In this document: in pieces, positions 9,869 to 13,425 of the stretch
Layout of the letters: every line of letters begins with the position of its first letter
How positions within the stretch are numbered: the stretch's first letter is position 1
Origin: Patescibacteria group bacterium
GTDB taxonomy: Bacteria > Patescibacteriota > Patescibacteriia > 2-12-FULL-57-11
DNA: 64,000 bases
Reading direction: 5' to 3'
Assembly: GCA_004297205.1 (NCBI GenBank)
Contig: SCUL01000002.1
Location: 188,594-252,593, forward strand
Made by a program: the position numbers and the translations under genes
The notes under the pieces: model-generated
What the model saw: the letters and a program-made list of their open reading frames with translations, nothing else
Database searches by the model: none
What the model was told of the DNA's origin: nothing

Positions 9869-9906
9869 GAAAAAAAGAGGAGCCGAGCTCCCTACGGAGT
9901 CGGCTC
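9869..9906 (-). terminator. intrinsic terminator of the kinase-1 gene
   Basis: GAGCCGA...TCGGCTC hairpin overlapping the kinase stop codon, followed on the minus strand by CUCUUUUUUUCUG. Confidence 0.5.
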
Positions 9907-11679
9907 GCCGGCTTCCTCGTCCTCGACGTCTTCCTCGTCGTCGTCTTCGATCCCGCCGTGGCGGGACCGCGGACGCGGGGCCGTGCGGCGGAGCATGGTC
10001 TCGATGAGGTCGCAGTCGACCGCCCGCACGCCCGTCGCCGGACAGCGCGCTGCCGCGTAGGCGCGGCAACGGTCCCGCCAGCCGGCGGGCCGCGGGCGGC
10101 TGCCGAGCGCAGCCATGCAGGCCGCGCCGTGGGCGTTCACCTCCGCCACCCGCGGGTCGGGCGGCGGAAGCGGGACGGGACGCACGACCGGAGGTGCGAC
10201 GGCGCGACGGGTGGACGCGTCCGGATGGACGATGCCCGCGTCACGCGGCGCGGCGACGGCCACGACCGTGACAGTGCCGGCGTCAGGCCGACGGGCCACG
10301 GCAGCACCGCTGAGCGGAGCGGCTGCATCCGCTGCAGCGCGGACGCTCCGCGGATGTTCCGCGCCGGCCGCCGCCGCGTTCGACGCGACTCTGGCGTCGA
10401 TCGCCGCGGCGACGATCGCCACGGCAGCACCGATGCCCGACAAGAGGATCAGCAGCCAGGCCCAGACGGGCAGGCGGCGCATCGGCAGGGACGGCGGATC
10501 GGTGGAGATCAGCCGCTGGTCCACCGCGCCCGACCGCTTGCGCTCGGTCTTCTTGGCCGTATCGAGGGGATCCTCGGCGGTCTTGCGCGACAGGAGCGGC
10601 AGGGGCGCGGACCCCGTGACCGAGCCGAACGGCGCAGTCACGGCCCGCGGCGGCACCACGTCGAGCGGCACGCGCGGCGGCGTCAGGTCGACGCGCGACA
10701 GCGGGGTCAACTCCTGCGCATCCACCGACGGACGGACCGACGCGTTGAGGCGCGCCCCGGTGGCATGGGCCAGCCCGTCGCGGAACTGGCGGACGGTCGG
10801 CCGGTCGGCCGGATCCTTAGCCAGGCAGCCCATGACGAGCTCGTTGAGCAGGTCGGTGATGCCCGGCATGCGGTGCTTGAGCGGCACCGGCTGCTCGATG
10901 ATGACGCGCACCAGGTAGCTGTGCGCGGTGTCGAGCTCCTGCTCCTCGATCGGCATGCGGCCGCTGAGGAGCTCGTAGGCCATCACGCCCAGGGCGTAGA
11001 CGTCGACCTTGACGGTCAGCGCCCGTTCGCCCGCAGCTTGCTCCGGCGCCATGTACGGCGGCGTTCCCATGACCTCGTCGCGGTCCGCGAGCGTGACCTT
11101 GGCGACGTGCTGGTCCTGGAAGCAGCCGATGCCCCAGTCCGTGATCAGCACCTGGGTCACGCCCGGGTGCGTCTCGACGAACACGTTCGACGGCTTGATG
11201 TCGCGGTGGATGATGCCCTTCTCGTGGGCGTCGATCAGCCCGGCGCAGACCTGGCTGATGTAGATGATGGCCTGCTCGAACGGGATGCGTCCGTTGCTCC
11301 CCGCGTCGCGCAGCTCGTCCATCATCTCCTCGAGCGTCTTGCCCCGCACCAGCTTCATCACGACGAACGGTATCCCGTTGAAGGGCGGCAGCTTGGCCAC
11401 CCCGGACTCGAACACCTGCACGATGTTGGGGTGCTCGAGCTTCATCATGATGTCGGCTTCGCGCTGGAAGCGCGCCACCGCCTCGGCCACCTGGCCGAGA
11501 TCGGTGTTCAGCAGCTTCACGGCCCGCACGGGATGACCCGGCGTCGGCACGGTGGCATAGACGCGACTCATGCCACCGGTTCCGAGAAGCCGCCCCAAGG
11601 TGATGTGATCGTTGATCACGGCACCCAGATACGGATCTTTGTCCGGCGTCAGCGGCGCCGGCGGCATGCTTTTGCTCAT
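9892..11679 (-). CDS. Hanks-type serine/threonine protein kinase with single TM and extracytoplasmic Pro/Ala-rich tail ending in a 4-Cys module
   Basis: ORF trimmed to the ATG at 11679 (MSKSMPPAPL), preceded by the SD GGGAGGTGGAGG. Kinase motifs: GTGGMSRVY, VAVK-like Lys (AVKLL), HRDIKPSNVFV, DWGIG, GTPPYMAPE. The TM is LPVWAWLLILLSGIGAAVAIVAA. The C-terminus is ..ACMAAL..C..Y..A.C......CDLIE..L followed by an acidic tail. Confidence 0.85.
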   Translation of the reverse strand: MSKSMPPAPLTPDKDPYLGAVINDHITLGRLLGTGGMSRVYATVPTPGHPVRAVKLLNTDLGQVAEAVARFQREADIMMKLEHPNIVQVFESGVAKLPPFNGIPFVVMKLVRGKTLEEMMDELRDAGSNGRIPFEQAIIYISQVCAGLIDAHEKGIIHRDIKPSNVFVETHPGVTQVLITDWGIGCFQDQHVAKVTLADRDEVMGTPPYMAPEQAAGERALTVKVDVYALGVMAYELLSGRMPIEEQELDTAHSYLVRVIIEQPVPLKHRMPGITDLLNELVMGCLAKDPADRPTVRQFRDGLAHATGARLNASVRPSVDAQELTPLSRVDLTPPRVPLDVVPPRAVTAPFGSVTGSAPLPLLSRKTAEDPLDTAKKTERKRSGAVDQRLISTDPPSLPMRRLPVWAWLLILLSGIGAAVAIVAAAIDARVASNAAAAGAEHPRSVRAAADAAAPLSGAAVARRPDAGTVTVVAVAAPRDAGIVHPDASTRRAVAPPVVRPVPLPPPDPRVAEVNAHGAACMAALGSRPRPAGWRDRCRAYAAARCPATGVRAVDCDLIETMLRRTAPRPRSRHGGIEDDDEEDVEDEEAGEPTP

Positions 11680-11827
11680 TGTCAGAGACCTCCACCTCCC
11701 GTCAGACAAAGGGACGGGCGGGTTGCCCGCACACTTGCATGGAAAATCGGGGTCGTCAACCCCGTTCTGGAATAAAAAATGGGGACGATCCGGGAGCCCA
11801 TGAAGGCTCTCCCGAATCGTCCCGCAC

Positions 11828-13425
11828 CTACCGCGGACGCGGCAGATGCAATGTGGCCTCGATCAGATCGCACCACGGGGTGCGACGCGCGCCGCCGCAG
11901 ACCGCGGTGTGGTACTGGACGCATTCCGCGCGTCCCGCTCCACGACCGCGCCGCCGCAACGCCGCCTCGCAGGCCTCCGACAGCTCCATCGTCGGAGCCA
12001 CGGCAGGCACGCGCGGGGCCACGGGCGCGACCGGTTCCGTCCGAACGACGGGGACCTCGACGCGCGGCGGCGCCTCGACCCGGCTCGGCACAGGCGGATC
12101 CGGCGCGCGGACCGGCGCTTCGACACGCGGCGTCACGGGGTGCAGGCGCACCACGGGCGCGACCGGTTCGGGAACCGCTTCCGGCTCCGGATCCGGGGCG
12201 ACGGGTGCCGTCACCGTCGGCGCGGGCTCCCGGCGGGGAGCAGCGCCGGTGATGACGTAGGCCGCGCCCACCGCGACGGTGAGCAGCGCCCCGAGCGCGA
12301 TCACGAGCATCCGCAGGCTCGGTGCCTGCGTCGCCGCCGGCATCGTGCCGGGCGCGTCGAGCGTGGCCGCCTCCTTGTCGTGCTTCGGCGCCTTGCGGGC
12401 GCCGGTCACGTCGAGGGTCGGCGCGTGGCCGATCGACACCGCGGCATGCATGCCGCTCGTGCGCGACAGGCGGGGCACGCCGGCCGCATCCTCGAGCGCA
12501 TCCACGAAGGACTTGGCGTCCGGATACCGCTGGTCGCGGTCCTTGGCCATGGCCTTGTGGAGCACCGGCCAGAGGTGCGCGTGTTCCGGAGCGTACACCG
12601 TGATCGGCGTCGCGTTGTCCTCGTCGTGGACGAGGCGCGAGTAGACCTCGGTGATGGTGTGCCCGTCGATCGGGTACTGCCCGGTGAGGGCGCGGTAGAC
12701 CAGCACGCCGAACGCGTAGACGTCCGTGCGCTGGTCGACCTCCACCTTGCCGAGCGCCTGCTCCGGCGCCATGTACCACGGCGTGCCCAGGAAGAGCGTG
12801 TCGTCGTGGGTCAGCTTCCGGCGCTCGAGCTTCTGCTGCATCGCCTCGTTGACGATCTTGGCGATGCCGAAGTCGAGGATCTTGGCGAACTCGCCCTCGT
12901 CGTCCATGCGGATGACGATGACGTTCTCGCACTTGAGGTCCCGGTGCACGATGCCCAGACGGTGCGCGGCGGCGAGGCCGCGGCCGATCTGGCGCACCAG
13001 CGGCATCAGCCGCTCGACCGTGAAGACGCCTGCCTCGAGGATCGTCTCCATGTCCGGGCCGTCGACGAACTCCATGACGATGAAGTGGTTGCCCGCGTCG
13101 TCGCTGAAGTGGTCGGTGACGGCCACGACGTGCGGCGACTCGATCTGCGCGGCGGTCTTCGCTTCCGCGTTGAACCGCTCGATCGCCAACGAGCCGCCCT
13201 TGCCGGCCTCGAGGACCTTGACGGCCACGCGGCGCTTGAGCCCCTCGTTCATCGCGAGGTACACCTTGCCCATGCCGCCCTCGCCGAGGAGACGGATGAG
13301 CGTGTAGTTCTTGCTCAGCGTCTTGCCGACGAACGGGTCCTGCTGGACCTTCTTGGTGTCCGCCTCGGTCACGAGGTGGAGACTCGCCTTCTTCTCTGTC
13401 ACGTCAGACCTCGCTCGTAAGAACA
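11828..13425 (-). CDS. Hanks-type serine/threonine protein kinase (paralogue) with TM, Pro-rich repeat linker and the same C-terminal 4-Cys module
   Basis: ORF 11828..13732 trimmed to the ATG at 13425 (MFLRARSDVTEKK...); a GTG start 21 nt downstream with a GAGG SD is an alternative. Motifs: GEGGMGKVY, AVKVL, HRDLKCENVIV, DFGIAK, GTPWYMAPE. The TM is MLVIALGALLTVAVGAAYVI. The linker is PRVEAPVRAPDPPVP repeats. The C-terminus is ACEAAL...C..Y..AVC......WCDLIEATL. Confidence 0.85.

Follow-up and report, generated by a model that had tools for sequence, protein, structure and literature searches.

Two receptor-type Hanks Ser/Thr kinases encoded in tandem in a Patescibacterial genome, here called K1 and K2, end in the same compact module with four invariant cysteines. 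Judged by its sequence, this module is a small domain that is new and unannotated, carried on a known receptor-kinase architecture; it is under purifying selection, and it is probably the sensor head of both kinases. The two genes lie in a stretch of 64,000 nucleotides (Patescibacteria group bacterium, GenBank assembly GCA_004297205.1, contig SCUL01000002.1, forward-strand positions 188,594 to 252,593), which in its full length we call the window; coordinates are positions in the window unless another accession is named, and those of the main features are collected in Table 1. It is largely through the sensor domains outside the membrane that bacterial receptor Ser/Thr kinases are defined, and very few of these domains have a known fold or ligand; here a compact, unannotated and apparently cysteine-stapled helical head is common to two otherwise very different kinases.

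A four-cysteine module at the ends of two kinases

The modules of K1 (ACMAAL..RDRCRAYAAARCPATGVRAVDCDLIETML) and K2 (ACEAAL..RAECVQYHTAVCGGARRTPWCDLIEATL) read exactly as quoted in the preliminary description of this DNA, and their core comprises about 50 residues, is basic and holds four invariant cysteines. Compared on their own, the two tails are 44-48% identical, with a weak BLASTP match (E 0.017). A hidden Markov model (HMM) built from K1-type tails only ranked every K2-type tail above all decoys in a database of 3,981 sequences. The reverse model, built from K2-type tails, found most K1-type tails (in five of six clade genomes or contigs); the two most distant K1-type members, P0126 (the tail of locus L009) and P0127 (the tail of locus L008), fell below the first decoys. 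Scores in these searches were 14-20 bits. By these comparisons the resemblance between K1 and K2 tails exceeds chance, and the two agree further in their cysteine pattern, their C-terminal position and their predicted three-helix fold.

The module is kept well beyond the window. All four K2 orthologues at 69-76% overall identity (P0002-P0005) retain the pattern C...C..Y....C...CD[LV]IE, which occurs in none of the other 115 best kinase matches of the K2 search, and the K2-type module is likewise retained in L006 (as CAVIEATL), L009 and L022. The K1-type module is conserved in six K1 orthologues and persists in the distant relatives P0123, P0126 and P0127, which are 43-52% identical to K1 overall. 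Both paralogues carry it in the window, L001/L002, L004 and L006; in L005 and L009 one paralogue each has the full module and the other is cut off or partial at a contig end, and P0004 and L022 are further carriers. In L008 the K1 orthologue keeps the module and the K2 tail has diverged. Across the window and every fetched locus, module sites fall exclusively at the C-termini of these kinases.

Across 11 aligned K1- and K2-type tails, the four cysteines, R18, the Tyr and the Ile are invariant (11/11), and R20, Gly, Leu and Glu are nearly so (at least 90%); a Trp before the second cysteine is present in all K1-type tails and, among K2 tails, in that of L006 only. The cysteines are spaced C-x14-18-C, C-x7-C and C-x8-10-C, and the family can be summarised by the signature C-x3-[LIV]-x2-R-x(1,3)-R-x2-G-[W]-x3-C-x2-Y-x4-C-x(8,10)-C-x-[LV]-I-[EK], which is carried by at least 13 proteins from two paralogous lineages and at least six genomes or contigs.

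Among close orthologues, identity is 70-88% in the module, compared with 73-89% in the kinase domain and 40-80% (of aligned columns) in the stalk that separates the module from the membrane, and the ratio of nonsynonymous to synonymous substitution (Nei-Gojobori dN/dS) is 0.19-0.31 in the module against 0.41-0.73 in the stalk. These values mark the module as a domain under constraint and the stalk as a spacer of variable length.

Topology, predicted fold and cysteine chemistry

Hydropathy analysis finds one hydrophobic segment per protein in all 13 family members. Because this single transmembrane (TM) helix follows an N-terminal kinase domain that must be cytoplasmic, the tail is placed outside the membrane, and by this predicted topology the module is extracytoplasmic. 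The preliminary description had already proposed one TM helix, a long Pro/Ala-rich linker and an outward-facing module in each kinase, and the single hydrophobic segment and the stalk composition agree with it; the PRVEAP-type repeats it noted in K2 are seen at the protein level as P[RS]RVEAP-like, and no DNA tandem repeat was found in the K2 stalk region. Stalk length ranges from 52 to 97 residues across family members, differing among K1 orthologues and producing many insertions and deletions in the K2 alignment, and would correspond to a reach of about 15-30 nm if extended (an estimate from residue count alone). The (R)PDAG or PRDAG motifs of the K1 stalk persist in every K1 orthologue, the remaining stalk being unconserved, and may serve as a short linear motif or as a site of modification.

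Beyond the TM helix, the only cysteines in K1 and K2 are the four of the module, and the count of such cysteines is even in every member (four in 12 of 13, six in the remaining one). The heads are also net basic throughout, with a charge of +1 to +5 and an isoelectric point of 7.9-9.9.

AlphaFold2 predicts three helices for the K1 tail (six-sequence alignment, mean confidence measure pLDDT 78.7) and the same three for the K2 tail (11-sequence alignment, pLDDT 78.2). In both models the first cysteine (C1) falls about five residues short of the end of helix 1; helix 2 carries C2 three to four residues after its start and C3 at its C-terminal end, and C4 is found two residues into helix 3. When the placement is judged from predicted helix boundaries and standard helix geometry, the members of each pair, C1/C2 and C3/C4, would be level with each other across their loop, which fits a pair of stapling disulfides; C2 and C3 lie eight residues apart along a single helix and would be about 12 A from each other, which makes a single Cys4 metal centre unfavourable in the model. 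The module is thus probably disulfide-stabilised. The preliminary description had left the choice between a disulfide and a metal-binding module open; the disulfide half of that suggestion is plausible, given cysteines flanking both inter-helix loops, their even counts and a nearby VKOR gene, and the single-site metal half is a poor fit.

The VKOR-family protein in question, with the CxxC motif CIVC, is a candidate for the extracytoplasmic disulfide-forming machinery, and VKOR substitutes for DsbB in many bacteria (PMC11208910). Its gene is present in the syntenic locus L001 too; beside the VKOR gene of the window no DsbA-like partner was recognised.

The kinases, their gene models and their history

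Both proteins score far above the gathering cut-off of the Pfam Pkinase profile (142.3 bits for K1 and 145.6 for K2, against 31.7), and the catalytic set of G-loop, VAIK Lys, alphaC Glu, HRD...N, DFG and APE is complete in K1, in K2 and in their orthologues, which upholds the tandem, co-oriented pair of Hanks-type kinases described earlier. The motifs are spelled VAVK, HRDIKPSN, DWG and APE in K1; at the start of its activation segment (around residue 182, 11130-11140, minus strand) the window K1 thus reads DWG, and all orthologues have the canonical DFG. Judged by these motifs, both kinases would be catalytically competent, as the best explanation set out below supposes. K1 (P0124) is an exact match to NCBI TAK04809.1, 'serine/threonine protein kinase [Patescibacteria group bacterium]', from a contig of 855,898 bp.

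As a by-product, the analysis corrects the gene model of K2. The NCBI model (P0001) has 551 residues and starts at ATG 13483, and the preliminary description put the start near 13425/13426; the N-termini of orthologues and a GAGG Shine-Dalgarno sequence favour GTG 13402 instead. The deposited start falls within the -10 box of K2's own conserved promoter.

In their kinase domains, K1 and K2 are only about 31-33% identical. Among 237 fetched kinases each ranks the other 202nd or lower, and kinases of other phyla score far above their mutual match. These ranks rule out a recent tandem duplication, and the divergence of the kinase domains means that the shared head is no by-product of a recent gene copy; it may have come about either by ancient duplication or by domain transfer. 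The concern that the similarity might be confined to two recent duplicates is further answered by the presence of the module in orthologues of both paralogues down to about 43-49% identity. Outside the clade, the closest relatives of both kinase domains are of Myxococcota/'Deltaproteobacteria' type (36-47% identity), and horizontal acquisition is possible.

A narrowly distributed, unannotated domain

Searches of Pfam, NCBIfam and PDB sequences with the tails gave no significant match, and a Foldseek comparison of structures with the PDB and BFVD gave no significant neighbour. The best sub-threshold Pfam matches were zf-CDGSH (E 0.024) and Rap1a (E 0.055), each in two of ten members and each below its gathering threshold (for Rap1a, 13.7 bits against a cut-off of 27.7). 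The proposal that the module is conserved and previously unrecognised therefore stands: it is kept in orthologues and has no significant match in these databases. A C-terminal sorting signal of the MYXO-CTERM or LPXTG type was considered and rejected, the tail having no hydrophobic segment and no NCBIfam match. The literature collection that was searched contained no paper on Hanks kinases in the candidate phyla radiation (CPR) or Patescibacteria.

An exhaustive HMMER search of 1.84 billion cluster representatives with a six-sequence profile found the module only in this clade. Its matches were the clusters of K2 and K1, P0123 as a distant relative of K1 (E 3.5e-4) and a single spurious hit, the repeat protein P0122, which matches only the stretch 'DCDLVEQ', eight times. 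At E<=1e-3 the same profile missed P0126 and P0127, which shows that its sensitivity has limits and that the module may occur somewhat more widely. A word-indexed profile search of 5.8 billion proteins with the two-tail alignment returned nothing, not even the query itself, which is an effect of the word index and not a sign of absence. Among GTDB species representatives, scanning for the tail pattern and for K1-specific patterns revealed unrelated kinases and no clade members, and a scan of JGI metagenomes yielded two contigs from Hainich groundwater, one of them already known. As far as can be seen from these searches, the module is confined to one narrow Patescibacterial lineage of groundwater-type samples.

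Probable separate transcription units downstream of a cell-wall operon

The kinases are co-oriented with murF and the gene of a class-B penicillin-binding protein (PBP), both of which lie upstream on the same strand, as the preliminary description had noted. It had also seen no terminator between them, which did not hold up: terminator-like hairpins with U-runs follow murF, K2 and K1, and they recur in orthologous loci. The GC-rich hairpin 3' of murF, which together with GTTTTGTT spans 13558-13537, is found in all five orthologous loci inspected (L001, L004, L005, L006 and L008), with a T-run in L004, L005 and L006 that is degenerate in L001 (GTTCTGT) and L008. Between K2 and K1, none of 200 shuffled sequences folded as well as the native hairpin; its equivalents in the same five loci reach -28 to -35 kcal/mol, are followed by T-runs and show base changes that preserve pairing, this conservation resting on folds made locus by locus. 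An element similar to that after K1 occurs in L001 and L008.

The promoter-like block upstream of K2 is near-invariant across six genomes among which protein identity is only 49-60%. Its -10 box is overlapped by a perfect inverted repeat (AACCGCG-N7-CGCGGTT, 13471-13491, minus strand), which is a candidate operator for a regulator. A CGGCGG...CGCCGG hairpin is conserved in the 5' leader, which is about 60 nt long. The TTGACG block conserved upstream of K1 is probably the K1 promoter, with a weak -10 element; it falls below the threshold of a consensus scan.

By contrast, mgsA, a TSP3-repeat gene, the PBP gene and murF are packed so tightly that they abut or have stops and starts that overlap, and the kinases stand outside this operon. 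Given the conserved terminators and dedicated promoters, K2 and K1 look like separate monocistronic units downstream of it. The order PBP-MurF-K2-K1 is common to six related loci, among them L006 and L008 as the more distant ones, but this says little on function because all these genomes are collinear across the whole neighbourhood.

Proposed mechanism and its alternatives

The explanation that in our view best accounts for these observations, and to which as a whole we give an even chance, is that K1 and K2 are separately transcribed receptor kinases whose disulfide-stapled heads drive kinase activation. Each would consist of a cytoplasmic kinase domain, one TM helix, a flexible Pro/Ala/Val-rich stalk and a three-helix head at its tip, in which one disulfide (C1-C2) would span the loop between helices 1 and 2 and another (C3-C4) the loop between helices 2 and 3, both possibly introduced by a VKOR-dependent oxidative-folding pathway. 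As the sole folded extracytoplasmic part, the head is the natural sensor or interaction part. It would bind a shared ligand or surface partner, or the heads of K1 and K2 would pair, and such engagement would join the cytoplasmic kinase domains for trans-autophosphorylation, in keeping with receptor Ser/Thr protein kinases activated by N-lobe dimerisation, for which PknD and PknB are precedents (PMC3601408). The disulfides, the dimerisation driven by ligand or partner, and the output are the parts that we infer, whereas the architecture, conservation, purifying selection, narrow distribution and separate transcription are read from the sequence data.

Several points weigh against this explanation. 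A helical bundle of 50 residues leaves little room for a ligand pocket, and the AlphaFold2 models reach a pLDDT of only about 78 on shallow alignments (6 and 11 sequences). The groundwater habitat may be anoxic, which makes extracytoplasmic disulfides less certain. In L008, the tail of the K2 orthologue (GCA_964648865.1, 8286-9860) has diverged to six cysteines (ACGERGNPARCRSAVRDHCPACDEEQPLRCRLARVRAGLAC), has lost the LIE motif and is undetected by the tail HMM, its extra cysteines coming as a pair; the head is thus not absolutely required in that form. Finally, the scanned parts of the window revealed neither a phosphatase nor an FHA protein nor any obvious substrate.

One alternative takes the cysteines themselves as the switch, so that the disulfide status of the heads would report oxygen, redox state or secretion stress. 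We consider such a redox or oxidative-folding sensor unlikely: the invariant cysteines are the most conserved feature of the head, the Hainich contigs come from groundwater with redox gradients, a VKOR gene lies nearby and two conserved extracellular cysteines govern CutS, whose Cys-to-Ser mutants are constitutively active (PMC12802291), but other positions are conserved too (R, R, G, Y, I and L, the W of K1-type tails and the C-x-[LV]-I-[EK] stretch), which is more in line with a particular fold or interface than with a thiol switch of a simple kind. The four cysteines could also hold a Zn, Fe or Fe-S centre that stabilises the head or senses metal, as an anoxic habitat favouring reduced thiols and the weak, sub-threshold zf-CDGSH matches of two members (best E 0.024) might suggest. 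However, the distance between C2 and C3 estimated from helix geometry (about 12 A) is too large for one ion, there is neither a His/Cys knuckle nor a CxxC pair, the paired extra cysteines of the L008 K2 tail fit disulfides, and the Pfam matches are not significant, all of which makes a metal site highly improbable.

The preliminary description instead assigned the module to the niche of PASTA repeats in cell-wall sensing, so that it would detect muropeptides or lipid II and be coupled to the adjacent PBP and MurF. This assignment rested on linkage, and it appears quite unlikely now that conserved terminators and dedicated promoters are seen to split murF, K2 and K1, that the tight mgsA-TSP3-PBP-murF operon excludes the kinases, that the gene order is confined to close, generally collinear relatives, and that neither sequence nor fold resembles PASTA. 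What speaks for it is the retention of PBP-MurF-K2-K1 in six related loci, the ability of a basic head on a long stalk to reach the wall, and the regulation of peptidoglycan synthesis by PASTA kinases (PMC8528326, PMC4632501). Very unlikely in our view, though not truly exclusive of the disulfide-stapled receptor, is a passive cap, localisation or oligomerisation tag without signal input, for example a basic head sticking to anionic envelope polymers or an S-layer. Strong purifying selection on specific residues in two highly diverged paralogues argues against such a tag, even if the head is small, net positive in all members and devoid of an evident ligand pocket, and K1 has an acidic tail in addition.

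A bolder version of the receptor-kinase explanation, which we regard as unlikely, is that the head is a new signalling domain making K1 and K2 a ligand-, contact- or redox-gated heteromeric surface receptor pair. If true, the pair would be a dedicated sensor of host or envelope state in an ultra-small, probably host-dependent Patescibacterium with a genome of 0.86 Mb. The small size of the genome (about 0.86 Mb) leaves hardly any space for redundant signalling, suggesting that the input read by the head matters for the lifestyle of the organism, and two divergent kinases with one head in a minimal genome offer a neat testable case. The significance is limited by the domain being found only in a handful of groundwater metagenome-assembled genomes, by lineage-specific sensor domains being common on Hanks kinases, and by a transcriptional layout that gives a link to cell-wall synthesis no support.

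Relation to known sensor kinases and cysteine-stapled domains

Among the closest known systems are the PASTA kinases (PknB/PrkC/StkP; NF033483). Like K1 and K2 they start with a Hanks domain, cross the membrane with one TM helix and end outside it in a sensor region made of small domains, and their genes likewise adjoin those of peptidoglycan synthesis. The NF033483 model (563 positions), however, matches only with its kinase part (profile positions 3-277 for K1 and 2-356 for K2) with 214 and 231 bits, respectively, against a cut-off of 450, and Pfam finds no PASTA domain (PF03793) in either protein. While PASTA domains are alpha/beta repeats, the head described here is predicted to be all-helical, is apparently stapled by cysteines and sits as a single copy on a Pro-rich stalk; and, unlike in the PASTA-kinase reading, sequence signals indicate that K1 and K2 are not co-transcribed with the PBP gene or murF.

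The PknH sensor domain from Mycobacterium tuberculosis (PDB 4ESQ), which contains two intramolecular disulfides (PMC3601408), is another extracytoplasmic sensor domain of a receptor Ser/Thr kinase, with the difference that the disulfides are only predicted in our case. PknH_C is a globular domain of about 190 residues with a binding cleft, as opposed to about 50 residues and three predicted helices here, and it matched neither the full-length proteins (E<=0.01) nor the tails (E<=10). Sensing of disulfide status through conserved extracellular cysteines has been proposed for CutS (PMC12802291). In CutS/CssS, as here, invariant extracytoplasmic cysteines mark the sensor region, but these are histidine kinases with two TM helices and two cysteines rather than four, and they share no sequence relationship with our module. 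In twin-Cx9C CHCH hairpins, a small helical domain located in an oxidising compartment has its antiparallel helices stapled by disulfides; the present module, compared with them by spacing only, has other cysteine distances, three helices and a bacterial, membrane-tethered setting.

Table 1. Coordinates of the kinases, their parts and neighbouring features in the window
Feature	Position	Strand	Evidence or remarks
K1, receptor-type Hanks Ser/Thr kinase, 595 aa	9892..11679	-	Pfam Pkinase E 2.3e-41; ATG 11679
K1 kinase domain	10780..11598	-	Pfam and translation
K1 single TM helix, VWAWLLILLSGIGAAVAIVAAAI	10399..10467	-	sole 19-residue stretch with Kyte-Doolittle mean >1.6
K1 Ala/Pro/Val-rich stalk, 82 aa, recurring (R)PDAG	10153..10398	-	identity 0.40-0.58, dN/dS 0.41-0.62
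K1 four-Cys C-terminal module, 62 aa	9967..10152	-	identity 0.80-0.87 to close orthologues, dN/dS 0.21-0.31
K1 acidic C-terminal tail (DDDEEDVEDEE...), absent from K2	9895..9966	-	composition kept, sequence not
K2, receptor-type Hanks Ser/Thr kinase, 524 aa	11828..13402	-	Pfam Pkinase E 2.4e-42; GTG 13402
K2 kinase domain	12527..13306	-	Pfam and translation
K2 single TM helix	12245..12316	-	hydropathy
K2 Pro-rich stalk, 81 aa, about 28% Pro, P[RS]RVEAP-like repeats	12002..12244	-	identity 0.60-0.80, dN/dS 0.50-0.73
K2 four-Cys C-terminal module, 57 aa	11831..12001	-	identity 0.70-0.88, dN/dS 0.19-0.25
Terminator-like hairpin and U-run, 3' of K1	9868..9892	-	similar element in L001, L008
Candidate K1 promoter TTGACG-N17-AAGTGT, TGc-extended (block TTGACG-N14-CATGCAAGKKT)	11731..11759	-	conserved in 6/6 loci
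Intrinsic-terminator-like hairpin and AUUUUUU between K2 and K1	11774..11829	-	minimum free energy -36.2 kcal/mol, z -5.5
K2 promoter-like site TTGACA-17-TATGTT	13479..13507	-	10/12 consensus positions
Terminator-like hairpin (9 pairs, 7 GC) and GTTTTGTT U-run, 3' of murF	13527..13558	-	
MurF-like Mur ligase	13585..14877	-	Pfam Mur_ligase_M/C; TIGR01143 251.8 bits, slightly below cut-off 288.6
Class-B PBP (PBP_dimer and Transpeptidase, without PASTA)	14887..16647	-	Pfam/NCBIfam
VKOR-family protein with CxxC (CIVC)	23186..23626	+	Pfam VKOR E 7e-23
tRNA-Glu(CTC)	7071..7145	-	
tRNA-Pro(CGG)	20674..20747	+	

Further observations in the neighbourhood

Directly 3' of K1 (7242-9700, minus strand) lie genes for an Ice_binding-like/DUF7507 surface protein and a sortase, a pair that keeps its synteny in L001, L002 and L006. 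In L006 (GCA_041643055.1, 8408-9796), an unrelated, Cys-rich secreted protein of 462 residues without a Pfam match is encoded between K2 and K1; its N-terminus is of signal-peptide or lipobox-like type, and its linkers are rich in DAG. The TSP3-repeat protein of the cell-wall operon (16644-17723) gives weak matches to the Myxococcus MtsD/CglD models. GC content along the window is 54-70%, which is high for Patescibacteria. An Rfam search over 9700-13800 gave nothing relevant, and a partial match to a tRNA-Glu gene sequence follows the K1 orthologue in both L006 and L008.

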